From Candidatus Saccharimonadota bacterium (GTDB lineage: Bacteria > Patescibacteriota > Saccharimonadia > CAILAD01 > BJGX01): DNA of 64,000 bases. Of the stretch, positions 23,315 to 51,314 are shown in pieces; position 1 is the stretch's first letter, and every line of letters starts with the position of its first letter. The stretch spans positions 721-64,720 of the forward strand of contig JACPPH010000005.1 of assembly GCA_016191105.1 (NCBI GenBank), given 5' to 3'. The notes beneath the pieces were generated by a model. The model saw only the letters and a list, made by a program, of their open reading frames with translations. It searched no databases and was not told the DNA's origin. Made by a program: the position numbers and the translations under genes.

Positions 23315-23368
23315 AATTGCAGTGGTGTCTATCTACAACGAGGCTCGAACCTATTTCCAAGAAAAAGC

Positions 23369-24235
23369 CTAAAGTAAGCCCCGCCGTTTGCCAGCCAAAG
23401 GCTGACCCGCCCCGCCAGCCCTGGATTTTGATTGTTTTTGGATTTCCCCCGCCAAATTTCTTTGCGTTGTATTTTCGGGTTCGGTCAACCAGAAGACAAC
23501 CGGATTTTTGCTACCAAAAATGGCTATCTTAGGTTCTGGTTTTGGCTGCGGGATAGAGCGGCTCAAGGTCATAACGGTCTCTGCTTGTACTCGGGCACCA
23601 GTATCGTCCAAGCCTATTTTGAATTTTTGTTTAACTTCATCTAGTTCGTTTCTGTTTAACGCTACGATCTCTGTCATTTTTCTTTCATAATCAATCTGCT
23701 GTGCCGGAACTATTACTTGGTCGTAGTGTTCGGGAGCTGCGTCCTTGAAGCCCGCAGCTAGTCTACTAGCCGCAATAAACAGATTATAGTAACCGCTGCT
23801 TTGCAGGCTTTCGAGCGGTATTTCCGCAAACCACATAAGCGCAGCTCGTCCGTCGTCAAGATTAAGGGGTGCAATCGCTACTTGAACATTGTTGACGTTG
23901 GCGAGAGCTAGGTCTGAAAACGAAACAGCTAGACGTGCAGCACCGGCATAGTCAGTCAGTGTAGACTTCTTTGCTTTTATAGTCTCCCGCCAAACCATCT
24001 TTTTCGTATCAATTGTTGCCGTAACAGTTCGTGTTCCGGGGTCTATATCTATACACATTAGGTCATCAAAGAAACCTGTTTGCAAATTTTCTGCCACAGT
24101 TGGTAGAACAATTTCTTGGTGTTGCACATATGAGTCGGCAGCTTTTGCCGCACCGTTCAACGTAATAATGTCAATCGCCGAAACACCTTTTTCAAAAACA
24201 AGGGCTTGGTCATCAAATTGGCTCTGGTATCGCAT
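23369..24235 (-). CDS. hypothetical protein (cargo gene A; 3' end runs through IR1-left)
   Basis: 288 aa; the last ~25 codons are encoded by the inverted repeat. Confidence 0.5.
   Translation of the reverse strand: MRYQSQFDDQALVFEKGVSAIDIITLNGAAKAADSYVQHQEIVLPTVAENLQTGFFDDLMCIDIDPGTRTVTATIDTKKMVWRETIKAKKSTLTDYAGAARLAVSFSDLALANVNNVQVAIAPLNLDDGRAALMWFAEIPLESLQSSGYYNLFIAASRLAAGFKDAAPEHYDQVIVPAQQIDYERKMTEIVALNRNELDEVKQKFKIGLDDTGARVQAETVMTLSRSIPQPKPEPKIAIFGSKNPVVFWLTEPENTTQRNLAGEIQKQSKSRAGGAGQPLAGKRRGLL
23387..23453. repeat. IR1 left copy (~65 bp, perfect inverted match to 24820-24886)
   Basis: GGCTGACCCGCCCCGCCAGCCCTGGATTTTGATTGTTTTTGGATTTCCCCCGCCAAATTTC; its reverse complement is present at 24820-24886. 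Confidence 0.9.
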
Positions 24236-24297
24236 TTTTATTACTCCTTGCGTATAATTATAACTGAAATTGTTAGCAAAAACTTGAAAGGGAAACT

Positions 24298-24747
24298 ATG
24301 CAAGACGACAATCAGCAACCACGAGACGACCAGCAATACCACAACCCAGTAGACGGCCAAACTTACGTAACGAACGGCACATGGCAGACACACAACCCTG
24401 CAAGCCCTGCGCCCGAACCAACAGGACCAGTGAAGCTGGAGGGCGTCCGTCTCTTGGCCGATGAACAGACAGTTGCGGCTAGTGTTTCCACTGAAGCCCT
24501 CAGCCAGTACATTAAAAGTATCTCTGGAGTTGTTGAAGCAGTCGCAAAAGACTCGCCTACGGCATTCGAGCTTCTTATTCAGTTTGAGCTGGCAACCGAT
24601 AAGCCAGTGTCTGTACAAATCAGTAATCAGGGTGAAGTATCTCAAGAGTTATTACAAAAAATCTACGAAGCACTAGGCACATTACAAGCACCTGCTGTTT
24701 CTGGAAATCCAGTACCATTCCAGGTGCACTACAAGATTAACCCCTAG
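24298..24747 (+). CDS. hypothetical protein (cargo gene B), Gln/Asp-rich N-terminus
   Basis: 149 aa, divergent from gene A, with a 62-bp AT-rich shared promoter region between them. Confidence 0.45.
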   Translation: MQDDNQQPRDDQQYHNPVDGQTYVTNGTWQTHNPASPAPEPTGPVKLEGVRLLADEQTVAASVSTEALSQYIKSISGVVEAVAKDSPTAFELLIQFELATDKPVSVQISNQGEVSQELLQKIYEALGTLQAPAVSGNPVPFQVHYKINP

Positions 24748-24819
24748 CACCGACCACCACGCCGTTTCTGCCGTTTTCGGCAGCCGACCCGACAGACCTG
24801 GATTTTCTCAACTGAAAAA

Positions 24820-24886
24820 AAGAAATTTGGCGGGGGAAATCCAAAAACAATCAAAATCCAGGGCTGGCGGGGCGGGTCAGCCTTTT
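24820..24886. repeat. IR1 right copy
   Basis: Reverse complement of 23387-23453. Confidence 0.9.
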
Positions 24887-25001
24887 TCGGAATTGCCGCT
24901 CATTCGGGCGGTATTTTCTTTGGCTTTGCGGAGCAAAAGCCATATGTTCTTGGGGGGAAACGTATTTGGGGCAGCCGTTGGATGCGCCTTTTTGGTTTTT
25001 A
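24883..25001. repeat. IR2 left copy (~120 bp; 2 mismatches to the inverted copy at 26547-26667)
   Basis: Immediately abuts IR1-right; lies upstream of the recombinase start. Confidence 0.9.
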
Positions 25002-25151
25002 GCCGCCATTGGCGGTTTTTGGTATAATTGCAAGTGGAACCAATTCAGTAGTTGTCTTTTTCGTTTGTCGGCTTTAATAGCCGTCTCGGACAATTTAAGG
25101 CAACTTGAATTGGTTCCACCGAGGCGGCTATTTAAGTTGAGAGGGGGTGCT

Positions 25152-26714
25152 ATGAACGAAAAATATTATTTATACGCCAGAAAATCTACTGACGTAGAGG
25201 ACAAACAAGTTTTGTCTATTGAGGCGCAACTCGTTGAGTTGCGAGAATACGCCAAGCGAGAGAGTTTGCATATTGCCGCCGAGTTTGTGGAGAAAAAGTC
25301 CGCCAAGACAACGGGCAGACCCATATTCGGCAAGTTGTTAGCTGAAATAGAGCAAAATGGCGGCAATATTCTGGCGTGGCACCCAGATAGACTGGCTAGA
25401 AATAGTGTGGACGGTGGACAGATTGTCTATTTACTAGACAGCGGACAACTCGGCACACTCAAGTTCCCCTCTTTTTGGTTTGAGAATACTTCTCAAGGCA
25501 AGTTTATGTTGTCCATAGCGTTTGGACAGTCAAAGTATTATGTAGACAATCTGTCCGAAAACACCAAAAGAGGTTTGCGCCAAAAGGTGCGGCGGGGCGA
25601 ACGCCCCGGCCTTGCACCTGTCGGTTACATCAACGATGTACGCACAAAAACAGTTGTCGTAGACAAACGGCGTTCGCCTATTGTCATTGAGGCTTTTGGG
25701 TTGTACGCAAAAGGCAATCAACGGCTTGAGGATATTGCGAGCTTTCTTGCTAGTAAAGGAATACTAACCAAATCTGGCAAGCAATTCCCCAAAGACAAAA
25801 TTAAGCGTATGCTGACAAATCCGTTTTACTACGGACATTTCCGCTATTTTGGCGAGATACACGAGGGCAAACATACAGCCATAATTTCCAAGAAACTGTT
25901 TGACGAGGTGCAAGCTACGCTTGCCAAGCGTGGACGACCACAAAAAGGCGCAACTGCTCCACAGATTTTCTGTGGCTTGCTGCGTTGTGCAACCTGCAAT
26001 CTAGCCATAACTGCCGAAAAGAAAGTAAAACATCAAAAGAACGGCAATATTCACGAATACGTGTACTACCGTTGCACAAGAAAGCACAAAACAATCCGTT
26101 GCACCGAGCCAGCAGTAACCGAACCAGAACTAGCAACACAGCTCACAGACATTTTGCATAGCTACGCTATACCCAAAAGTTGGGCAGAACAACTAGAAAC
26201 AATGCTTGCTGCTGATGAAAAGAAAGCTAACCAATCCTCTGGAGTGTTTGTGGCTAACGCACAAACACGACTTGCGAGCTTGCAGGGCAAGCTCCAGCGA
26301 CTTTTAGACGGCTATTTAGACCAAGATATAGAGCAGAGTGTCTATCGGGCTAAACAAGCTGAGCTAATGTCCGAGAAAAAGTCGCTAGAGGAACAAGTCA
26401 GCAAGTTCACGCTTGCTAGTAATAGTTGGGTTGAACCTATGCGCCAGTGGCTCAAACAAGCGTATGACCTCAATGGAATTGCAGAGAGTGGCGAGCATAG
26501 TGCGATAAAGTCCGCTTTTCTTGAGATGGACGGATTGAAACTGTTTCTAAAAACCAAAAAGGCGCAGCCAACGGCTGCCCCAAATACGTTTCCCCCCAAG
26601 AACATATGGCTTCTGCTCCGCAAAGCCAAAGAAAATACCGCCCGAATGAGCGGCAATTCCGAAAAAAGTTTTCTAATGGTGCCGCGGAGAGGACTCGAAC
26701 CTCCACGAGCGTAA
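25152..26714 (+). CDS. large serine recombinase (resolvase catalytic domain, zinc ribbon, coiled coil)
   Basis: YLYARKSTDVEDKQ...SIEAQ catalytic-Ser region; CGLLRCATCN...YYRCT zinc ribbon. GAGGGGG RBS before the ATG at 25152. The last 12 codons (..MVPRRGLEPPRA*) read antisense through the tRNA-Leu T-arm. Confidence 0.9.
   Translation: MNEKYYLYARKSTDVEDKQVLSIEAQLVELREYAKRESLHIAAEFVEKKSAKTTGRPIFGKLLAEIEQNGGNILAWHPDRLARNSVDGGQIVYLLDSGQLGTLKFPSFWFENTSQGKFMLSIAFGQSKYYVDNLSENTKRGLRQKVRRGERPGLAPVGYINDVRTKTVVVDKRRSPIVIEAFGLYAKGNQRLEDIASFLASKGILTKSGKQFPKDKIKRMLTNPFYYGHFRYFGEIHEGKHTAIISKKLFDEVQATLAKRGRPQKGATAPQIFCGLLRCATCNLAITAEKKVKHQKNGNIHEYVYYRCTRKHKTIRCTEPAVTEPELATQLTDILHSYAIPKSWAEQLETMLAADEKKANQSSGVFVANAQTRLASLQGKLQRLLDGYLDQDIEQSVYRAKQAELMSEKKSLEEQVSKFTLASNSWVEPMRQWLKQAYDLNGIAESGEHSAIKSAFLEMDGLKLFLKTKKAQPTAAPNTFPPKNIWLLLRKAKENTARMSGNSEKSFLMVPRRGLEPPRA
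26547..26667. repeat. IR2 right copy (inside the recombinase 3' coding region)
   Basis: Reverse complement of 24883-25001 with 2 mismatches. Confidence 0.9.
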
Positions 26715-29479: not shown

Positions 29480-29584
29480 CTAAATATAGTAAAATGTAGC
29501 GGTTAGGCCGCGGTGGTGGAAGTTCGCAAAACACGCAAGCTGTCGAGCAGAAGCGAGCAAGTTATATTAGGCTAGACTAGCCCC

Positions 29585-29686
29585 TCAACTAGTTTGGGGA
29601 GCTGATCAACTTAAAGATTAATAGGCCGCGGTGGCTCAACTAGTTTGGGGAGCTGATCAACTTAAAGATTAATAGGCCGCGGTGGT
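29585..29686 (+). repeat. tandem 51-bp direct repeat x2, each ending in the tRNA-Leu 5' acceptor sequence; a third partial copy lies at 29500-29512
   Basis: Unit CTCAACTAGTTTGGGGAGCTGATCAACTTAAAGATTAATAGGCCGCGGTGG occurs at 29585-29635 and 29636-29686; the second copy runs into the real tRNA start. Confidence 0.8.
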
Positions 29687-29765
29687 GGAATTGGTAGACA
29701 CGCTAGCTTGAGGGGCTAGTGCCCACTTTTCGGGCGTGGAAGTTCGAGTCTTCTCCGCGGCACCA
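29676..29765 (+). tRNA. tRNA-Leu (anticodon GAG)
   Basis: Near-identical arms to the Leu(CAG) gene; anticodon loop CTTGAGG; CCA encoded. Confidence 0.8.
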
Positions 29766-29771
29766 GAAATT

Positions 29772-30200
29772 ATGAATATTATAGACGAAGTTAAAAAACT
29801 CAATCTCCCCATAGGAAGCTATGCGGTTTTCGGAAGCGGCCCAATGCAGGTTCGGAAAATTAAGCCTTTTAATAAAGATATAGACTTAATTGTTACACCC
29901 CAACTTTATGAGCAAATGAAGAGTGCGGGGTGGGATGAGAAATTTTGGGATGAAGGCACCAGATATCTGGTAAAAGGTATTCTTGAAGTATGTGATACTT
30001 GGGATTATCCTCCTTACCACCCAGATGTGGCTAAGCTGATAAAGCAAGCAGAAGTTATCGAAGGTGTGCCATTTGTTCAATTAGAAGAGGTTTTAAAGTA
30101 CAAAAAAGCCTATAATCGCCCAAAGGATCAAGTGGACGCAAAGCTTATTGAGGACTACTTAAGTTCTCAGCTGCCTCAACCACATTCTCCAGCAGCATAG
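29772..30200 (+). CDS. putative nucleotidyltransferase-fold protein
   Basis: GS...DIDL (GSYAVFGSG...NKDIDLIV) resembles a pol-beta-type NTase motif; its 3' end overlaps the folD 3' end convergently. Confidence 0.35.
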   Translation: MNIIDEVKKLNLPIGSYAVFGSGPMQVRKIKPFNKDIDLIVTPQLYEQMKSAGWDEKFWDEGTRYLVKGILEVCDTWDYPPYHPDVAKLIKQAEVIEGVPFVQLEEVLKYKKAYNRPKDQVDAKLIEDYLSSQLPQPHSPAA

Positions 30201-30993
30201 CCACCGTAACCGGCCCCACACCGCCAGGGACTGGCGAGATGTAGCTGGCTTTTTCTTTCACACTGCTAAAATCAACGTCACCCTTTAGTTCACCGCCCAC
30301 ATCCATGGTGCCGGCATCTATCACAACCGCCCCCTTCTTAACCATATCGCCCGTAACTAGGCCAGCTTTGCCGGCGGCAGAGATAATAACATCGGCTTTT
30401 TGCAGGGTGCCGCTAAAATCTTCGGTTTGTCGGTGGGCTACAGTTACATCTTGGCTTTCGCTGGCTAAAATATCGTGCAGTGGTTTGCCCACCAACTGGC
30501 CGCGACCAACAATAACGATGTGTTTGCCCTTTAATTCAATATCCTCTCGGCGCAAGAGTTCCAGAATAGACTTGGGAGTAGCTGGCACTAGCGGGGCTTT
30601 GTCGGTTTTTAACAACTCCTGGCTGGTGCTGCTCAGCCCATCCACATCCTTTTCGGCCGGTATGTGGTCGAGCAGCTCTTGAGCACTGCCCCAACCATTA
30701 AAGGGCAGCTGGGCAATTATGCCATGAACTTTTAGGTCTTCAGCAAGCCCAGCTACAATCTTTTCGCACTCAGCTGGCGATTGACTGCTCAAGTCTAAGT
30801 ACTCGGTAGCTATGTCGAGCTCGCCAGCCCGGCGTTGCTTCATGCGAATATAAACTTTCGAAGGTTCGTCGGGATTAACGCCAATAATAACTAGCTTGGG
30901 CTGCACCCCGGCTTTTGCTAGCTTTTCTACACGAGGCTTAAGGTCTTTATAAACTTTTTGGGCGATCTTGCGGCCATCTATGATTTTGGTCAT
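30145..30993 (-). CDS. folD: bifunctional methylenetetrahydrofolate dehydrogenase/cyclohydrolase
   Basis: Typical FolD N-terminus (MTKIIDGRKIAQKV) and Rossmann region; 282 aa. Confidence 0.85.
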   Translation of the reverse strand: MTKIIDGRKIAQKVYKDLKPRVEKLAKAGVQPKLVIIGVNPDEPSKVYIRMKQRRAGELDIATEYLDLSSQSPAECEKIVAGLAEDLKVHGIIAQLPFNGWGSAQELLDHIPAEKDVDGLSSTSQELLKTDKAPLVPATPKSILELLRREDIELKGKHIVIVGRGQLVGKPLHDILASESQDVTVAHRQTEDFSGTLQKADVIISAAGKAGLVTGDMVKKGAVVIDAGTMDVGGELKGDVDFSSVKEKASYISPVPGGVGPVTVAMLLENVVEAAENLSSPQ

Positions 30994-31044
30994 AACTTAA
31001 TTCTATCAAAAAAGAGCCAATAGGCTCTAATGTTGGAATAATTT

Positions 31045-31542
31045 ATGGTGGCCCTTTTCCAACGGCTTTCGAATCCGCGCGGCGCGTTGGCGAATTCCCC
31101 TGAGGCATCCGATGAAATCGGCGCTGATGCGACACCTGAACCGTCTGGCACAACGACCGATCGGACTGTCCAGAAGCAAGTTCGACTCTCGTCTGAGCAA
31201 GTTGACGACCTCGTGGCCGCGTATCAGGCCGGGTGCTCAGTCCGTGACTGCGCACGGGACTTTGGCGTCCACCGGACAACTGTCATGAGTCATCTCGAGC
31301 GTCGCGGCGTTGAGCGGCGGGCACAGGGCCGCAAACTTGACGACGAAGCGGTAGCCCATGCCCGCTCGTTGTTCGCCGCTGGCCAGTCGGCTGCCTCGAT
31401 CGCTCGCGAGTACGAGGTAGATGCGGAGACAGTTCGCCGAGCGCTGCACAACGACTATCTAACGTCGTCGCTGCCGAGCACACAGCAACCTCGTCTGACG
31501 TCAGTGGAACAACGGCCGATCAACGCGGAGTGCCGGAGATGA
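31045..31542 (+). CDS. tandem helix-turn-helix DNA-binding protein (resolvase-HTH / sigma-70 region-4-like)
   Basis: Two repeats of an HTH module (…AGCSVRDCARDFGVHRTTVMSHL… and …AGQSAASIAREYEVDAETVRRAL…). Confidence 0.5.
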   Translation: MVALFQRLSNPRGALANSPEASDEIGADATPEPSGTTTDRTVQKQVRLSSEQVDDLVAAYQAGCSVRDCARDFGVHRTTVMSHLERRGVERRAQGRKLDDEAVAHARSLFAAGQSAASIAREYEVDAETVRRALHNDYLTSSLPSTQQPRLTSVEQRPINAECRR

Positions 31543-32272
31543 CGACATACCCATAGTCCTTCTCAGGCGCGGTCACGAGGTCGGCATTCTGCTCAGACCA
31601 TCGGCCGGTAGTGATGTCGTTCTCAAGTCGTTGCATTGCGGTCGCGAGGTCACGGTCACCGATGCGCGCGAAGGCCGAGATGTTCCGGCGTACCCGGGGA
31701 TTGAGATACTGCTGAGGGCGTCGCCAGAATGCTTCGTATATACCGTCCTCAAAGTCCCACGGAAGTGGGAACGGACGCACCGAACCATCATTCAGATACT
31801 CGGTTATCTCTCCGATAGCAGGAAAGTTCGACCAGTCCTCGTCAAGCAGTTGAGGAAGGTACTGTCGTTCAAGCCAAAAGTCGTACTCGCAATCAGGATC
31901 TTGGGTGATGATCACCACCCTCGAAACACCAACGCGACAGACTTCGTCCAAGCCCAGTCGCCAGTCCTTCCAATGATGCAATGTGTGAACCGCGAGCACT
32001 CCACTCACGGACTTTGATCGTAGTGGGAGGTCTTCAGCAACGGCTCGCACTGAGATACCGCCCCCTCGCTGCGAAAGCATCGTTCTCGATGGGTCAAGAC
32101 CGATGACGAACTTGTCCGGCGGCTCGTACGAACCGCTACCGCATCCGACGTTTACAACCGAGTCGGTTCCACCTAGAAGTCGATCCACGATTTCGCGTAG
32201 ACGAGGATCAGTCCTTCTCGTCTCTGCGTATCCCGCGTCGAAGGCATTCGCCCCCAAGCCTGGAACAGTCAT
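31520..32272 (-). CDS. class I SAM-dependent methyltransferase
   Basis: VVNVGCGSG motif I and downstream acidic post-I residues. Confidence 0.7.
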   Translation of the reverse strand: MTVPGLGANAFDAGYAETRRTDPRLREIVDRLLGGTDSVVNVGCGSGSYEPPDKFVIGLDPSRTMLSQRGGGISVRAVAEDLPLRSKSVSGVLAVHTLHHWKDWRLGLDEVCRVGVSRVVIITQDPDCEYDFWLERQYLPQLLDEDWSNFPAIGEITEYLNDGSVRPFPLPWDFEDGIYEAFWRRPQQYLNPRVRRNISAFARIGDRDLATAMQRLENDITTGRWSEQNADLVTAPEKDYGYVVISGTPR

Positions 32273-33348
32273 TGCTTTTGCAGTTCCGGGTGTTGACGAA
32301 GAAGGCGAACTGGATCAGAGCTCGCCACGAACCACAGGCGAAAGAATCGCCGAATGTAGGCGTCATACTCAACTGCGGGCTCAGATGGCATCCGAAACAT
32401 GAACAGGTACACCCGGAAGTACACGTCACGCAAGATCAATGCTGCCTCCGCTCGTTGCAACTCTCGCATCGTCGTAGACCTCTCGCTCAATGGCACGAGG
32501 CCAAACAATCCGGCATCCGCCAAGGCCAATTCGGATGGCACTGTCAGTGCTTCCAGTCCATCCGCCTCTGGCAATACGTAACCGTCGAGGTGAAGACATT
32601 CGTGGCCGGTCTTTCTCGCGAAATCCGAGAACAGACGCCACCGACTAATCGATCGACTGCCGGAACCGGTGATCTCAAAAGACAGCCACTCGACACCATC
32701 AAGCTTCGCAATGATCAATTCGAGTTTGGCGACAAGATGACGAGATATTTCACCTTGTCCGATGCCTGCCACATTCTGGGCCCCGAAGAATCCGACATAG
32801 AGCTGACGACTCTTGCGCAATGCGATCGCCTTGACGAATCCCACCACCTCGTTGCCTGACTTTGCGACTACGAGGAGATGAATTGGATCCTCAGCATCGG
32901 CCATCCATAGCTTGTGCATGGCCCTCATGGTCTTGGGCGAGTATCGCTTGTCGCCGAGCCACACGGCCAGCTTGTCCGGCGATACTCGATCGCAGTCCTC
33001 GATGAGGTCAATGTATTGATGCACGAAGCGGTCTACCGTCGCCGGCCGTCGTGGGTTCAGTACACACCGCACGTGGCGCTTGTACTTGTCGTACATCAGG
33101 TAGGCGAAGAACCCGCCAATCGTCGCGCCCACGATCGCCACCGTCCATGCACCAATTGGGCTCGCTGTTCCATTTGGGTCAGAAGGCGTCTGCGAGGGCT
33201 TCGGTTCGGTGCCCGTCGACACGGCTGAAGACGGCGGATCTTCGCTAGCTATTGCAGTGACTGGTGTTGCCACGCCAAGAGAAACGACGAAAGCACATGC
33301 GCCGAGTACGCAGAGACAAAGGGATCGGACGAGGTCTCGGCAACCCAT
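32269..33348 (-). CDS. hypothetical lipoprotein/membrane protein (start assumed at MGCRDL; the tracked ORF extends to 33414)
   Basis: LCLCVLGAC lipobox-like signal, Pro/Ser-rich linker, TM helix; C-terminal domain unassigned. Confidence 0.4.
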   Translation of the reverse strand: MGCRDLVRSLCLCVLGACAFVVSLGVATPVTAIASEDPPSSAVSTGTEPKPSQTPSDPNGTASPIGAWTVAIVGATIGGFFAYLMYDKYKRHVRCVLNPRRPATVDRFVHQYIDLIEDCDRVSPDKLAVWLGDKRYSPKTMRAMHKLWMADAEDPIHLLVVAKSGNEVVGFVKAIALRKSRQLYVGFFGAQNVAGIGQGEISRHLVAKLELIIAKLDGVEWLSFEITGSGSRSISRWRLFSDFARKTGHECLHLDGYVLPEADGLEALTVPSELALADAGLFGLVPLSERSTTMRELQRAEAALILRDVYFRVYLFMFRMPSEPAVEYDAYIRRFFRLWFVASSDPVRLLRQHPELQKQ

Positions 33349-33692
33349 TCCGCTTCTCCGTACTTCCGGTAGTAGCTCCTGTACGTGCACTCGGGGGATG
33401 GCCCCCACCAACACGGTAGGTAAAAATAGCAGGTGATACCTCGATTCCCCAGTTCAATTATCGCTAGACCCCGGATCGGAGCGTACGCCTGATACTCGAC
33501 TGTCCGCTTCAGAGACCTGACCACTCGCGGAGCCAGCGTCTCGACGACGTCGGTGGCCGCGTCCAAGTGTGCTTCTCGGCCATCCGCAGTCACAGCCACC
33601 ACGTCGAGCGAGAGCGGATGAGCGTCATATCGTGGCAACGTTGTGCTGGCCCGCGGCCGAGGCCGTTGGGGTGACTGCTGCTCCCCCTGCAT
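33249..33692 (-). CDS. hypothetical protein (overlaps the downstream ORF by ~100 bp; possible frameshifted fusion)
   Basis: The 147-aa ORF shares 33249-33348 with the 32269..33348 ORF in a different frame; could be one disrupted gene. Confidence 0.25.
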   Translation of the reverse strand: MQGEQQSPQRPRPRASTTLPRYDAHPLSLDVVAVTADGREAHLDAATDVVETLAPRVVRSLKRTVEYQAYAPIRGLAIIELGNRGITCYFYLPCWWGPSPECTYRSYYRKYGEAEWVAETSSDPFVSAYSAHVLSSFLLAWQHQSLQ

Positions 33693-33695
33693 GAG

Positions 33696-34421
33696 CTAGT
33701 GCGGATCGCCAAGCATCGACCGGATCGAGATCTCCTCCACCACTGCCTGAGGCGAGAGGCTGAGGACGGCAGCCAGCAGTATGCCATGGTCATCCGGATC
33801 GAGAAGGCGCCCTTCCGGGAGTTCCTCGTCTGCCCACATGTCTGTCGCCGTCGCACCCGCCGCAAGATGCGTTACACCGATGTTCTCTCCGACAAGCTCT
33901 TTTCGAAGGTTCTGAGCAAATCCCCGCAGCCCCCATTTCGTGATCCCATAGTGCGCACCTCCCGGATAGGGCTCGAAGCCTGCGGTGGAGCCCGTTATCA
34001 CTATCCTCCTCCGCGTCCCACGCTTCAGAAGCGGGAGCATGCAGTGCGCGATGTCCATGTTCGCCAGTAGATTCACGCGGAGTTGAGTCAGAAAATCGTC
34101 GCTCGCGCCGTCTACCGCGTCACCGTCCAGGTAGATCCCGCCATTTAGCACGAGCACGTCGAGTTGGTCACGATGGGTCGCCACGGCGTCTGCGATCGCG
34201 CGAGGGCTTCCTTCGTCGGCTAGGTCCGCGGATACGCGAAATTGCTTGCATTCTGGGGCCAGCTCGTCCAGCCGCTTGCTTATTGCGTCCAACGCTCGAT
34301 CGGTACGCGCATGAAGAAATATCGCGTCGGCCATCGGCGCCGTCGCACATGCCATCGCGAAGCCGATTCCCCGCGACGCGCCGGTGATCAATATAGAGTC
34401 AATTCGCCTGCTCTCACTCAT
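33696..34421 (-). CDS. SDR-family short-chain dehydrogenase/reductase
   Basis: ILITGASRGIG cofactor motif; 241 aa. Confidence 0.8.
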   Translation of the reverse strand: MSESRRIDSILITGASRGIGFAMACATAPMADAIFLHARTDRALDAISKRLDELAPECKQFRVSADLADEGSPRAIADAVATHRDQLDVLVLNGGIYLDGDAVDGASDDFLTQLRVNLLANMDIAHCMLPLLKRGTRRRIVITGSTAGFEPYPGGAHYGITKWGLRGFAQNLRKELVGENIGVTHLAAGATATDMWADEELPEGRLLDPDDHGILLAAVLSLSPQAVVEEISIRSMLGDPH

Positions 34422-34480
34422 GATCTACTCCTCGTTACCTTCCAATTGTCGCGTAGTCTTACTGCAAATACAAGGTATCA

Positions 34481-35095
34481 CTAGCCGATAAGGCCGCTAA
34501 GCCAGGTTTCCACCGATGTTCCCAGCGAAGGAAGGTGGTAACCGCCTTCCTGAACTACCACCGTTGGGATACCCAAGGCCCCAACTCGAGTGGCGGCGCC
34601 CTCATATCCACCAAGCGTAAGCAGAAAATCGCCAAGTTGATCGTCAACATAGGTATCGAGCCCAAGAGACAGCACCAAGTATGCGGGCTCGAATCGTGCG
34701 ATTTCGTCGCATGCTGCCTTCAGACATTCAAGGTAAGCGGGGTCAGACGTGCCGGTTGGTAGCGGAAAGTTCCTGTTAGCACCAATGCCATCCGATTTAC
34801 CCAGCTCCGTGGCCCGACCAGAGAAATAGGGATAAGCATGGTCTGGATCTCCGTGGATTGAGACATACAACACGTCTCCACGCGTATAGAACAGGTCCTG
34901 TGTTCCATTTCCATGATGGAAGTCCACATCCAAAATTGCTACCCGCTGTCCGCCTTCGCAGAGGAACTCCGCCGCCGCCGCGGCATTGTTGAAATAGCAG
35001 TAGCCGCCGAAACTTGCTCTACCTGCATGGTGGCCGGGTGGACGGCAGAGTGCGTATGCAGATCGATCGCCCAAGACCATGAGGGCCATGCACAA
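34481..35095 (-). pseudogene. histone-deacetylase/acetoin-utilisation (AcuC)-family protein, N-terminally truncated
   Basis: CRPPGHHA...ILDVDFHHGNGTQD core is present, but ~100 residues normally preceding it are missing. The upstream sequence is a duplicated fragment of another gene. Confidence 0.55.
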
Positions 35096-35163
35096 GCTAT
35101 GGATGGCCGATGCTGAGGATCCAATTCATCTCCTCGTAGTCGCAAAGTCAGGCAACGAGGTGG
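35086..35163. repeat. ~78-bp inverted duplicate of 32858-32937 (fragment of the 32269..33348 gene) abutting the tRNA-Val(TAC) 3' end
   Basis: Exact reverse-complement match: ...ATGGCCGATGCTGAGGATCCAATTCATCTCCTCGTAGTCGCAAAGTCAGGCAACGAGGTGGTGGG... Confidence 0.85.
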
Positions 35164-35237
35164 TGGGCGATGTAGGACTCGAACCTACGACCTCCTCGGT
35201 GTAAACGAGATGCTCTAGCCAACTGAGCTAATCGCCC
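35161..35237 (-). tRNA. tRNA-Val (anticodon TAC)
   Basis: GGGCGAT acceptor, anticodon loop TTTACAC, GGTTCGAGT T-loop, CCA encoded. Confidence 0.8.
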
Positions 35238-35352
35238 TTGTTATTTGGGTGCCCGCAAAAGTTCAGACTTTTGTGGGAGAAGGAACATTAATGCAAGAGT
35301 TACAAATGCAAATTGGTAATTTGTCTTTATCAACTGAAGCATTAAAGTGCTG

Positions 35353-35948: not shown

Positions 35949-37565
<1,617 letters not shown>

Positions 37566-37736
37566 AAAATTTGAAAACTTAAATGGCCGCCCCGGTGCAC
37601 TCAATCCAAGTTGCCCTGAACTGACCCGAGACGGCCATTAAAAAAGACAACTTGTCCGATTGAGAGCAAACTCATTATAGCAAAAATTCTTTTTGTTGGG
37701 CAAATCAAATCCGAGACAGAATTAAATCGCACAAGA

Positions 37737-37865
37737 GCAAACCTCGTTTTGGCCAACCGCGAGGCGCGCCTGCGCGCGCCGAGCGGAGAGGATTTACCTC
37801 CACAAAATCAATGGGCGGCACTTTGTGCCGCCCACGATCTGGCTCTCAAAAAGCCGAAAAGTTTT
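37737..37865. repeat. ~129-bp perfect inverted repeat, right copy (upstream of the recombinase 2 start)
   Basis: Reverse complement of 36022-36150. Confidence 0.9.
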
Positions 37866-38293
37866 GTCTTGGTGTATTTATACAACCGCGCTCGAACCTA
37901 TTTTAGCAAAAATCTCTAACCGAAACCAATCGCTCCGCCCCGCCGCCAGCCGCCGCAAAGCGGCGGCCTGCCTCGCAGAAAAACCTTCTTTACAATTTTG
38001 ACTTTGCGCGCGCCACTAAAAAATTCTTCTAAAAAGGAAAAGAAAGTTTTTCTGCTCGGCTCCGCGCTCAATCGCGCGGGGCGGCGGGGCTTCGCTTCGG
38101 CTCGGGCGGGGCGGAATTCCCCCCCCACACCCCCCATCCGCCACGCCCTCGCTTCCGGCGGCTATTTTTTCGACGGGCTTGTCTTTTCCTTGTCCCACCT
38201 CCCAGCGCGGAAAAGATTGAGGAGCTCCCTATGAATAGAATACTTGTTGTCCTTTTTCTTTTTGTCTGCTATCATTTGAATGTAGGTTCAAAT

Positions 38294-38611
38294 ATGAAAA
38301 AGAACGAACTCAAAAAGGAACTCAAGAATAAGGAAGCAATTCTCGCGTGTGCGCGAGAATTTAACATGGTCGGCGATCCAACACGCCTGAAAATTTGTTA
38401 TCTCTTGTGCCGCCACAAAGAACTTTCGGTCGGTGAGATTACCGAAGTCGTCGGCGTTTCGGTTTCTGCCGTTTCTCATACGCTTCGTAAGCTCCAAAAA
38501 GCGAATATGGTTGAAAGCCGCCGCGAATTCCGCACCGTTTATTATAAACTTAAGAAATCACCTGTCGTCGAGGTGATGAAAGAAAGAATCACCCATTATG
38601 AAAACATTTGA
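38294..38611 (+). CDS. ArsR/SmtB-family metalloregulatory transcriptional repressor
   Basis: DPTRLKICYLLCRHKELSVGEITEVVGVSVSAVSHTLRKL winged-HTH with CxC metal-site-like cysteines; start taken at MKKNELKK. Confidence 0.7.
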   Translation: MKKNELKKELKNKEAILACAREFNMVGDPTRLKICYLLCRHKELSVGEITEVVGVSVSAVSHTLRKLQKANMVESRREFRTVYYKLKKSPVVEVMKERITHYENI

Positions 38612-40001
38612 CCTTATCATTATCGGAGGCGGAGCCGGAGCATTCGCGGCGGCAATTCGTGCTAACGAACTTAAAGCGAAAACGGCTCTTGTGAATGCCG
38701 GGCTTCCACTCGGCGGCACCTGTGTCAATGTCGGGTGTGTTCCCTCAAAGACGCTTCTTTATGCTGGCGAAATTTTGCACCATGCCAAACATCACGGCGT
38801 TACTGGCGTTGAGCTTGAAGTGAAAAACTTTGATTTTCAAAAAGTCGTGCATGACGAGCTTTCGCTTGTGGAGAAATTGCGCCAAGAAAAATACGAAAAG
38901 GTGCTCAAAAGTTTAGAATATGTAACGGCAGTTGAGGGTAAGGCAAAGTTTATTTCTCAAAACGAGGTGGAAGTGAACGGCGAAACATTGAGTGCGGAAA
39001 AATTTATCATCGCCGTGGGCTCCACTGCCAATGTTCCGCCGATTGAGGGAATACGAGAGACGGGGTTTGTCACGCATATTGAGGCGTTGCGCCTAGAAAA
39101 GCAACCGAAAGAATTGGTTGTGGTCGGTGCAGGGCCGCTTGGCTTGGAATTTGCTCAAATGTTTTCTCGCTTTGGCACGAAAGTAACCATTTTACACCGC
39201 GGCGACTCAATTTTCCCGCACTCTGAAAAAGCACTCACTGATCGCCTCGCCGAAATACTCTCAAAGGAAGGAATAACAATCAAAACGAATGTTGAGATAA
39301 AAAGCGTGCGCAAAGAGGGCGATAAAAATGTTGTCTCGTATCAAATCGGCGAGGCACAAGAGGAAGTATCCGCTGACGAAATACTTTTGGCGGCAGGCAA
39401 AACGCCTAACACGCAAGGACTCCGTCTTGATGTTGTTAGTGTTGAAATAAATAAAGGTCAAGCGGTAGTCGTCAATCAGTATTTCCAAACATCCAATCCG
39501 AAAGTTTTTGCCGTTGGAGATGTTACCAATGGTCCTTTACGGCTTGAACCAACTGCCGGACGTGAGGGAACGCTTGCCGCAGAAAATGCGCTCAAAGGCA
39601 CAACACTTTCGATTGATTACAATGCCGTGCCTTACACCATTTTTACCGACCCTCAGCTTGCCGGAGTTGGTTTCACCGAAGACGAGCAAATGAAGCAAAT
39701 GGGCGTTTGCGCCTGCCGCACCGTTTCGTTTGAGGATGTGCCCAAAGCAATTATTATGCGGCGCACAGAAGGAATGATAAAAATGGCGATTCATCCGCAG
39801 ACAAAACAAATTCTCGGCGTGCATATTCTCGCACCGAATGCTGGAGAACTCATCGCTGAAGCGATGGTATTGGTGAAGAACAAAAACACGATTGACGATG
39901 TGGTGAATTCTCTGCCGATGTTCCCAACACTTTCGGAGGCAATAAAAATCGTCGCACTTTCGTTTACAAAAGATATTTCTAAATTAAGTTGTTGTATATG
40001 A
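38598..40001 (+). CDS. merA: pyridine nucleotide-disulfide oxidoreductase, mercuric reductase (MerA)-like core
   Basis: GGTCVNVGCVPSK redox-active disulfide; C-terminal vicinal Cys pair (...KLSCCI*), the MerA hallmark; no N-terminal metal-binding (NmerA) domain. Confidence 0.6.
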   Translation: MKTFDLIIIGGGAGAFAAAIRANELKAKTALVNAGLPLGGTCVNVGCVPSKTLLYAGEILHHAKHHGVTGVELEVKNFDFQKVVHDELSLVEKLRQEKYEKVLKSLEYVTAVEGKAKFISQNEVEVNGETLSAEKFIIAVGSTANVPPIEGIRETGFVTHIEALRLEKQPKELVVVGAGPLGLEFAQMFSRFGTKVTILHRGDSIFPHSEKALTDRLAEILSKEGITIKTNVEIKSVRKEGDKNVVSYQIGEAQEEVSADEILLAAGKTPNTQGLRLDVVSVEINKGQAVVVNQYFQTSNPKVFAVGDVTNGPLRLEPTAGREGTLAAENALKGTTLSIDYNAVPYTIFTDPQLAGVGFTEDEQMKQMGVCACRTVSFEDVPKAIIMRRTEGMIKMAIHPQTKQILGVHILAPNAGELIAEAMVLVKNKNTIDDVVNSLPMFPTLSEAIKIVALSFTKDISKLSCCI

Positions 40002-50493: not shown

Positions 50494-51314
50494 TGCCAGA
50501 CAAACCTATCCCAAGACCACCAAGCGATGAAGAAATGGGCCGAGCTGACCTGCGTATTGATCAGTCAAACCGCCAGGCTGTGGTGTTGGCTCGTATAGCA
50601 GAACTACAAAAATATGGTTTTAGCCAAGAGTTTGTAAACGATTTTAGAGCCGAAACACTGGTTGGAGCTAATGTTTCTGTAGGGGAGCGGCTTGATAGCC
50701 TAACTAGCCAAGGCTTCCACAGCCCCGTCAGCTTGATTGAAAAACAGCCCAACATACTCAAATATGCTCCAGAATCTATCCAAGGCAAACTTGATAGCCT
50801 AACTAGCCAAGGCTTCCACAGCCCCGTCAGCTTGATTGAAAAACAGCCCAGCATACTTGGTTTGGCTCCGGGAAACATTCAAAAACGAGTTGTTCTATTT
50901 TCTAAGTTAGTAGGCTTATTCAACTCACCAATTAACCCGGTTAAGCTTATGGAACAAGAAGCTGGGCTATTTTCAACAAAGATCGACAAGTTGTTAGTGT
51001 TAACCCGAATAGCTCGTAATTCCACAGCCGACGCCAGCCAGGTAGATCGCAAGCTGATCCATGATATTATGTTTGCAAACCTAGAAGATGTGTTGCTTGG
51101 TCTGGAAGATTTGGGTGAAGAGCAGCAAAACGCCAACCCCAACTATACTATTCAGCAATTACTGGCCAGGGCTAAAGAAATTAAAAAGCAAAGTCTGGGT
51201 AAAAACACCAAACGAGCCAGGATAGAGCGGGCTGCAGAGCTCGATCCAAAGGTGAAGGCTCGATACTTTAAAGGCTATCCATTAAAATCTGCTTTGGAGC
51301 AAAAGGATGAGTAA
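50493..51314 (+). CDS. hypothetical protein with an internal 99-bp tandem duplication
   Basis: A perfect 61-bp direct repeat at 50691-50751 and 50790-50850 encodes a duplicated LDSLTSQGFHSPVSLIEKQP module. Confidence 0.45.
   Translation: MPDKPIPRPPSDEEMGRADLRIDQSNRQAVVLARIAELQKYGFSQEFVNDFRAETLVGANVSVGERLDSLTSQGFHSPVSLIEKQPNILKYAPESIQGKLDSLTSQGFHSPVSLIEKQPSILGLAPGNIQKRVVLFSKLVGLFNSPINPVKLMEQEAGLFSTKIDKLLVLTRIARNSTADASQVDRKLIHDIMFANLEDVLLGLEDLGEEQQNANPNYTIQQLLARAKEIKKQSLGKNTKRARIERAAELDPKVKARYFKGYPLKSALEQKDE

Follow-up and report, generated by a model that had tools for sequence, protein, structure and literature searches.

A compositionally foreign 4.1-kb segment abutting the CCA end of a tRNA-Val(UAC) gene in a Saccharibacteria-like chromosome, lying among tRNA-end serine recombinase units

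A 64,000-nt stretch of a Candidatus Saccharimonadota chromosome (contig JACPPH010000005.1 of assembly GCA_016191105.1; the whole stretch is called the window here) contains a 4.1-kb segment, the island, that abuts the 3' end of a tRNA-Val(UAC) gene and differs strongly in composition from the backbone around it. The backbone is chromosomal, encoding UvrA, UvrB, UvrC, LigA, DnaE, FolD and MerA. We hold with moderate confidence that the island is the remnant of horizontally acquired DNA from a higher-GC organism (about 60% GC or more), inserted into a Saccharibacteria chromosome exactly where tRNA-Val(UAC) ends in CCA. The insertion point looks to lie between the tRNA gene and the apparent terminator of its operon. 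Coordinates of the features discussed are given in Table 1.

The edges of the island were placed by a maximum-likelihood fit with two change points, at 31047 on the left and 35199 on the right, with 2-log-likelihood support ranges of 31040-31083 and 35072-35279. Both of the sharp edges proposed in an initial annotation of this DNA, 31040 and 35163, fall inside these ranges. GC content from 31040 to 35160 was 57.9%, compared to 47.3% (standard deviation (SD) 1.24, maximum 50.5%) in 517 backbone windows of equal size, placing the island 8.6 SD above them. The step is 10.6 points, and the initial values of about 62% GC and a 15-point jump were thus too high. The Karlin dinucleotide distance delta* was 0.2075 for the island and 0.051 +/- 0.027 for the backbone, and the tetranucleotide distance was 0.0409 and 0.0143 +/- 0.0037, respectively, so that both measures lie 6-7 SD out.

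The deviation extends to the encoded proteins. Pooled over the six island open reading frames (ORFs), GC at the first, second and third codon positions (GC1, GC2 and GC3) was 0.647, 0.474 and 0.626, against 0.562, 0.380 and 0.503 in 21 backbone genes. Codon usage had been described as GC3-biased, but GC3 is lower than GC1 and GC2 is raised as well, and the compositional signal is at least as much one of amino-acid composition as of GC3. Lysine accounts for 1-4% of residues in island proteins versus 6-9% in the backbone, and the GARP/FYMINK amino-acid ratio is 1.75-1.97 in island proteins and 0.8-1.1 in backbone proteins. The segment is an outlier in base composition, in its di- and tetranucleotide signatures and in amino-acid usage, and the earlier view that the segment is foreign to the backbone is well supported. 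Classical regressions from GC1, GC2 and GC3, with coefficients that reportedly go back to Lawrence and Ochman, gave donor GC contents of 61.5, 76.7 and 56.1%, respectively. The lag of GC3 is in the direction expected if the segment had partially ameliorated in a host of 47% GC.

On the right, the foreign sequence begins at the CCA end of tRNA-Val(UAC), as initially described. Read on the minus strand, the intact tRNA ends in ...GCCCACCA, or over a longer stretch ...ATCGCCCACCA, and the island follows. At the left border the island ends on the same strand in ...GGGC-CACCA-T-AAATTATTCC (in the longer reading ...GGAAAAGGGC-CACCA-T-AAATTATTCCAACATT). A hairpin with a T-run, AGAGCCTATTGGCTCT TTTTTG (31028-31013), comes next and is followed by the folD ATG. 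Copies of CCACCA, a 6-nt direct repeat of the tRNA end, stand at both island borders; by chance alone, a 6-mer would match somewhere in the 44 nt of the boundary support range in about 1% of cases (44 x 4^-6). The hairpin is possibly the terminator of the tRNA operon, now split from tRNA-Val by the island.

The island also contains a perfect inverted repeat, found by repeat search and blastn, of 101 nt at 100% identity (32840-32940 versus 35067-35167), longer than the 78-bp inverted copy first described. Arm R lies inside an orphan gene, ORF381, and arm R' fills the interval between the break point of a truncated deacetylase gene of the HDAC/AcuC family and tRNA-Val. Both joints carry microhomology, TCG at the inner one (3 nt, 35067-35069) and TGGTGGG at the tRNA (7 nt, 35161-35167). 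R is probably the source and R' the copy, because ORF381 runs continuously across R whilst the deacetylase frame meets a stop 19 codons upstream of the inner joint of R'. The opposite possibility, that R' is original deacetylase sequence, was considered on account of family-like residues about six codons into R', but the stop and the continuous ORF381 outweigh it. The island holds three short cores related to the tRNA end, TGGTGG at 31046, CCCACCA at 32840 and TGGTGGG at 35161. No inverted repeat was detected between the ends of the left segment (31046-31250 versus 32640-32839), where the alignment score was 15 and that of shuffles 16 +/- 2.

Physical linkage was checked in a second assembly. 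The proteins of the NCBI metagenome-assembled genome (MBI2798177-MBI2798201) are also present in the Logan assembly of run SRR12113392, two contigs of which match the window exactly, L001 over 29689-32869 and L002 over 32911-35096. In unitig L001, 1351 nt of backbone (orf154 and folD) pass uninterrupted into 1830 nt of island, indicating that the left junction is genuine. L001 ends 30 nt inside the left arm of the inverted repeat, and the two ends of L002 likewise lie 30 nt inside an arm, one in each. With k = 31, an end at 32869 (32840 + 29) requires a second predecessor exactly at the outer arm boundary, and the R'/tRNA-Val junction supplies one. The unitig ends fit a true inverted repeat with four real arm junctions in the reads, the support for the right junction being only indirect. 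These data bear on the idea that a high-GC stretch of another organism was mis-joined during assembly or binning. The source is indeed a metagenome-assembled genome, one junction has a perfect repeat, and two metagenomic loci of the recombinase family described below (L064 and L130) show palindromic artefacts around inverted repeats. However, a k = 31 unitig from an independent assembler crosses the left border, unitigs end exactly k-1 into the repeat arms, and backbone flanks the island on both sides within a single contig of 104,685 bp. A chimera is thus largely refuted, and we regard it as extremely improbable.

The five gene types first named in the island, namely a helix-turn-helix (HTH) protein, a methyltransferase, a lipoprotein-like protein without assigned function, a short-chain dehydrogenase/reductase (SDR) and an N-terminally truncated deacetylase, stand after Pfam analysis, and a sixth ORF of 147 aa was added. 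The HTH ORF and ORF147 are missing from the NCBI annotation and were called only in the Logan assembly. In Pfam, NCBIfam and PHROGs none of the six ORFs matched a recombinase, transposase or phage domain, HTH motifs being the only such feature, and all island proteins form singleton clusters. The HTH protein matched only Streptomyces plasmids, and weakly (36.5% identity, E = 8e-4). The methyltransferase has 67 homologues at 31-45% identity. All ten of its matches that carry an organism name are from Actinomycetota at 39-43% identity (Streptomyces, Streptodolium, Pseudonocardia, Actinoplanes, Actinokineospora and Acidimicrobiia), and its best match lies on a contig of 70.7% GC.

The N-terminus of ORF381 carries a signal or lipobox-like stretch, and the protein also has a transmembrane segment. 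A search of 5.8 billion clusters yielded no homologue other than the protein itself, and no Pfam or NCBIfam family matched it even at E = 10. Its single-sequence AlphaFold2 model reached a predicted local distance difference test score (pLDDT) of 41.7, with the C-terminal domain modelled poorly, and Foldseek against the PDB returned weak, mixed GNAT and RNase H-like matches (best E = 5e-3), so no fold was assigned. For the SDR, an exhaustive search of 1.84 billion cluster representatives found a best relative with 46% identity over the full length.

The deacetylase gene is a fragment. Its sequence breaks at 35066, where R' begins, and what remains is the final ~195 residues, from immediately ahead of the RPPGHH motif onward. 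Full-length homologues have 316-340 aa and the fragment begins at their residue ~119-125, so about 120-130 N-terminal residues are gone and the deacetylase domain is incomplete. The missing part was not found elsewhere in the 64-kb window. Homologues of the fragment run into the thousands, with identities of up to 60%; a 60% match is on a 70%-GC contig, and the homologues with names include ones from Saccharimonadales, Gottesmanbacteria, Levyibacteriota, Chloroflexota and Limnocylindrales. The cargo as a whole (HTH regulator, methyltransferase, membrane protein, SDR and deacetylase fragment) looks like a decaying piece of a small-molecule modification cluster. As one gene is truncated and two are orphans, no host benefit can be claimed.

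The initial annotation had proposed a high-GC actinomycete as the source, to be checked by a taxonomic tally of best matches. The tally is uneven: Actinomycetota for the methyltransferase, Streptomyces weakly for the HTH protein, a mixture for the deacetylase, metagenome proteins for the SDR with the best on a 35%-GC contig, and two orphans. On the refuting condition set in the initial annotation, best matches within the backbone lineage, it speaks clearly neither for nor against. High-GC-type amino-acid composition, judged by GARP/FYMINK, was seen in 20/20 top methyltransferase homologues and 18/20 top deacetylase homologues, and the best long contigs of both sets of relatives have about 70% GC. 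The top SDR matches were mixed (six of the high-GC type and six of the low). A higher-GC source for the methyltransferase and deacetylase genes is thus supported by their relatives. The actinomycete part of the proposal is weak and only a lead, drawn from distant methyltransferase and HTH matches.

The island lies in a stretch rich in tRNAs and repeats. Four long perfect or near-perfect inverted repeats were found in the 64-kb window, all of them between 23.4 and 37.9 kb, and the same stretch holds eight tRNAs and two large serine recombinase (LSR) genes. An Rfam scan of 22-39 kb returned tRNAs only. Resolvase, Recombinase and Zn_ribbon_recom domains are present in both LSR1 and LSR2. The two proteins share 56% identity with one another and no more than 24-29% with LSRs of phages or plasmids, and CcrB and XisF are their best NCBIfam matches. 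Each gene sits in a 1.8-kb unit bounded by near-perfect inverted repeats. In both units the arm at the 3' end of the gene encodes the LSR C-terminus and faces a convergent tRNA, and the inverted copy lies upstream of the gene. The left arm of LSR2 begins 5 nt inside the 3' end of tRNA-Val(CAC), and a flank, F, starts beyond its other arm at 37875. From left to right, the LSR1 unit consists of a TGGTG core, an outer F, two cargo ORFs, a truncated inner F, a 120-nt arm, LSR1, the second arm and tRNA-Leu(CAG), with the arm ending 10 nt short of the tRNA. The cargo module (23323-24885) encodes two proteins without assigned function, of 288 and 134 aa, and the head of F is lost from the inner copy. 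Heads of F occur in the window only at 23323 and 37870, and no outer F copy was found for LSR2 in the window. Just past the LSR2 flank, 38231-40001 encodes a regulator of the ArsR family and MerA, a mercuric reductase that scores above the NCBIfam cut-off; the pair may be cargo of the LSR2 unit.

Metagenomes were scanned with an alignment of LSR1 and LSR2. More than 576 relatives were found, and the best 80 (L059-L138), 62-81% identical, were analysed. A convergent tRNA was present at the LSR 3' end in 52 of the 64 loci with enough downstream sequence, representing 24 isoacceptors. The inverted repeat was present in 44 of the 50 loci with enough upstream sequence, with a median length of 115 nt and a median identity of 98.9%. 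In 43 junctions the arm reaches 4-7 nt (mode 5) into the tRNA, and the same nucleotides close the distal arm. The core co-varies with the tRNA discriminator, being TGGAG for Gly, TGGCG for Asp, TGGGG for His and TGGTA for Glu(CUC). Outside the distal arm lies the conserved flank F of about 150 nt, with the sequence TATTTATAC..CGCTCGAAC.TATTT. An inverted copy of F was found 1.5-2.7 kb further out in about ten loci (L070, L090, L092, L096, L099, L104, L116, L120, L129 and L059), with diverse cargo between the copies: TolB-like, binding-protein/channel and membrane proteins, a protease, an N6-methyltransferase, GrpB with APH, and hydrolases. F arms are 75-97% alike between loci despite unrelated cargo, and module GC is mostly under the locus mean. 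Three loci (L076, L089 and L113) have a unit of this family at tRNA-Val(UAC) itself. A scan of viral contigs with LSR2 gave no match.

Serine recombinases cross over at 2 nt, and the short core must match between partner sites. The sites A/tRNA, A/F (internal and inverted) and X/F may accordingly be read as attL, an intact attP and attR, with the crossover at the two nucleotides after TGG. The LSR1 unit is consistent with this putative scheme from 23323 (TGGTG plus the F head) to 26681. No description of the LSR/tRNA/inverted-repeat architecture was found in the literature searched, which is not proof of novelty. Two of the loci, L064 (1-1550/3102-4651) and L130 (1-476/2057-2532), are giant palindromes around an LSR centre, most likely assembler artefacts to which the inverted repeats gave rise. 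In many LSR loci the sequence stops at or inside the repeat arm, and such loci should be read with caution.

In the reading we favour, foreign DNA would have entered by recombination in the tRNA 3'-end core (TGGNN), the putative crossover point of the resident LSR family. The tRNA-rich stretch may act as a hot spot that gathers incoming DNA, because this family would use the tRNA 3'-end core and two copies lie only 0.9 and 8.5 kb from the island. A later deletion would have removed the 5' part of the deacetylase gene along with whatever stood between it and the tRNA. The break would then have been patched with the 101-nt inverted copy of ORF381, joined via the 3-nt and 7-nt microhomologies, so that the tRNA end was kept. 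The empty site predicted on this account is GCCCACCA-TAAATTATTCCAACATTAGAGCCTATTGGCTCT, that is, tRNA-Val, terminator and folD.

Several results weigh against this account. The best SDR relative (L055/L056; JGI 3300036198 and 3300036203) is on 35%-GC contigs among the genes for ribosomal proteins S12 and S7, RecJ and pyruvate kinase. This looks like a native setting in an organism of low GC and speaks against a simple account with one donor. Homologues of the deacetylase are native in Saccharimonadales, where a copy with 55% identity lies in a native chromosomal context of 47% GC. No island gene has a close relative. The 6-nt direct repeat overlaps the start codon of the HTH gene (ATGGTGGCC) and could, at about 1%, be fortuitous. 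The terminator call is a consensus match in a region whose terminator count is not above that of shuffles, and nothing ties the LSRs to the insertion of the island. All assemblies used here derive from one read set (SRR12113392), and the R'/tRNA-Val junction had no exact match in JGI metagenomes. A sibling genome lacking the island was not found, the FolD scan of GTDB representatives reaching at most 43% identity (35-43%), and insertion rather than ancestral presence is something we infer from composition alone.

If the DNA were instead native and deviant in composition for functional reasons, no transfer would be needed, and the deacetylase homologues in Saccharimonadales and the low-GC contig of the nearest SDR relative favour such a view. 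We nevertheless find it very unlikely, as the deviation has sharp edges and covers six unrelated genes plus intergenic DNA, the lysine content is unlike that of any backbone gene, two genes are orphans and one is truncated, and the segment sits at a tRNA end in a recombination hot spot. The initial annotation called the inverted repeat a scar of rearrangement or deletion, which is plausible, but its geometry matches the neighbouring serine recombinase units. As a replication or repair accident, it would be a deletion patched by an inverted templated insertion through template switching, as in microhomology-mediated break-induced replication (MMBIR) or inversion-associated DNA duplication (DDAI). 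No recombinase would be involved, and the position at the tRNA end would reflect selection for an intact tRNA-Val. Microhomology at both joints, a source copy 2.1 kb away and the truncation of the adjacent gene all agree with such an accident, and DDAI is on record in bacteria (PMC8963470, with Furuta 2011 cited there). If selection kept the tRNA end intact, deletion and an inverted templated patch explain the repeat equally well. The accident leaves unexplained the arm-into-tRNA geometry, seen in 44/50 LSR loci and twice more in the window, and the recurrence of the tRNA-end sequence as a direct repeat at the island's far border. We consider it a possibility, though on balance an unlikely one.

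It is also conceivable, if a little more doubtful still, that the LSR system made or moved the island, or at least the 2.3-kb part of it bounded by the repeat (32840-35167), as a cargo module. Here the units would have the form X-[TGGNN]-F'-cargo-F-[NNCCA]-A'-LSR-A-[TGGNN]-tRNA, with attR-like, intact inverted attP-like and attL-like sites, and the R'/tRNA junction and the inverted core in ORF381 would be products of an LSR reaction on a pseudo-site in foreign DNA. In agreement with this, R' overlaps the tRNA 3' end by 7 nt, compared with 4-7 nt in related loci, the three island cores have the orientation predicted by the LSR scheme, and repeat-bounded 1.5-2.7-kb cargo modules of deviant GC abut LSR units in about ten loci. 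tRNA-Val(UAC) is targeted by the family elsewhere, and the arm ends are alike (AAAGTCAGGcaacgagg/TGGTG versus AAAGTCAGGTTC/TGGTG). However, the island has no LSR, and what lies between its arms is the N-terminal part of ORF381, ORF147, the SDR and the deacetylase fragment. It also has no F flank: outside arm R there is ORF381 coding sequence, and R is itself ordinary coding sequence of an orphan gene. The left segment ends without an inverted repeat, giving a left end X/z and not the predicted X/q. The arm-end likeness is shifted by 5 nt and came to attention post hoc, and the origin of the long repeats is not understood even in the LSR units. Both an LSR-made repeat and an accidental scar are compatible with foreign DNA inserted at the tRNA end, as we favour. 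The arm-end likeness itself is a 9-mer shared by R' (35141-35160) and the LSR arm of locus L087, and may be due to chance.

The island resembles tRNA-linked genomic islands in that a deviant accessory block abuts an intact tRNA 3' end and a short, possibly fortuitous repeat of the tRNA end stands at the far border. Unlike them, it has no integrase or any other mobility gene, its direct repeat is 6 nt and not the classical 15-50 nt, it is small (4.1 kb), and it contains a 101-nt internal inverted repeat that is not known from classical islands. In the model put forward for Prochlorococcus, tRNAs seed islands: transient elements with a recombinase, the tycheposons, integrate at the tRNA, and whatever DNA fails to be excised, degenerate elements included, piles up beside it (Hackl et al., bioRxiv 10.1101/2020.12.28.424599). 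Tycheposon-seeded islands are the nearest concept for the LSR units described here, as recombinase units and a recombinase-less foreign remnant likewise share one tRNA cluster. Tycheposons differ in having mostly tyrosine recombinases and partial tRNA copies as direct repeats, whereas the present units have a distinct LSR clade, about 5 nt of tRNA and inverted repeats of 100-170 nt.

Known LSR elements (phiC31/Bxb1-type, SCCmec Ccr and XisF) share the domains of the neighbouring recombinases and a short matching core, but they are not known to be bounded by long perfect inverted repeats that include the recombinase 3' end or to keep an intact inverted attP-like site inside. Nor are they known to target the CCA end of many different tRNAs. 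DDAI, as cited in PMC8963470, is alike in that a break point gains an inverted duplicate of a short segment and the joints show microhomology; it was described for large chromosomal inversions, whereas the joint here falls exactly at a tRNA end, as in the LSR units.

On its own, the island is an ordinary tRNA-adjacent foreign islet and modest news. The main interest lies in its context, an abundant and apparently undescribed family of tRNA-end LSRs whose repeat geometry the island shares. Bacteria of the candidate phyla radiation (CPR), Saccharibacteria included, have tiny genomes and live on other bacteria, and how they gain genes is an open question. It is a rather unlikely but consequential possibility that the repeat-bounded part of the island is a cargo cassette captured by undescribed mobile or invertible LSR units in Saccharibacteria-like (CPR) genomes. 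Such units would be 1.8 kb long, use the CCA end of at least 24 tRNA isoacceptors, have near-perfect inverted repeats of 100-170 nt at their ends that take in the 3' end of the recombinase gene, carry an intact, inverted attP-like site inside and accrete adjoining repeat-bounded cassettes of diverse cargo. If so, the LSR system would be a route for foreign genes into reduced-genome bacteria, in this case from a high-GC organism. An LSR system that brings in DNA at tRNA ends would also offer a testable mechanism of CPR gene flow and recombinases with programmable tRNA-end targets.

Table 1. Positions of the island, its genes, borders and repeat arms, and of the two recombinase units, in window coordinates (a point in the strand column stands for no strand).
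Feature	Position	Strand	Remarks
Island, compositionally foreign segment	31047..35160	.	~4.1 kb, 58% GC; change-point fit, GC, delta* and tetranucleotide tests
Double helix-turn-helix protein, 165 aa	31045..31542	+	Pfam HTH_38 2.1e-10, HTH_7 2e-6
Class I S-adenosylmethionine (SAM)-dependent methyltransferase, 250 aa	31520..32272	-	Pfam Methyltransf_11
ORF381, orphan, 381 aa (334 aa per NCBI)	32269..33414	-	contains repeat arm R
ORF147, orphan, 147 aa	33249..33692	-	from ORF list; no family match
SDR, 241 aa	33696..34421	-	Pfam adh_short 1.9e-34
HDAC/AcuC-family gene, 5'-truncated	34481..35095	-	Pfam Hist_deacetyl PF00850, profile positions 96-296 of 298
Arm R	32840..32940	.	inside ORF381; ORF continuous over both arm boundaries
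Arm R'	35067..35167	.	from HDAC break to tRNA-Val; final 7 nt (35161-35167) belong to tRNA 3' end
ORF381 core site			GCAAAGTCAGGCAACGAGGTGGTGGGATTC; GCAAAGTCAGGCAACGAGG-TGGTGGG-ATTCGTC
tRNA-Val(UAC) (tac), intact, right border of island	35161..35237	-	ARAGORN; Rfam tRNA 70.7 bits
TGGTGG at left edge	31046..31051	+	direct repeat of tRNA-Val 3'-end core TGGTGGG (35161-35167)
Terminator-like hairpin and T-run	31013..31028	-	consensus scan; between island edge and folD start
LSR2 unit	36021..37874	-	135-nt perfect inverted repeats, arms 36021-36155 and 37740-37874; gene 35982-37604
LSR1 unit	23323..26681	+	120-nt arms 24883-25002 and 26547-26666; gene 24966-26714

Two further duplications were seen in the window. 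Between LSR1 and the island, a 51-nt stretch is perfectly duplicated in tandem (29584-29634 and 29635-29685), with the first 10 nt of tRNA-Leu(gag) at its end. The first ~15 nt of this tRNA occur a third time, together with 3 nt upstream of them, at 29504-29521, and the joints of the duplication as a whole (29504-29690) fall in GGTGG/TGG, like the LSR core. Further along, a coding region at 50691-50882 contains two tandem copies of a 93-nt unit with 86% identity and a spacing of 99 nt.

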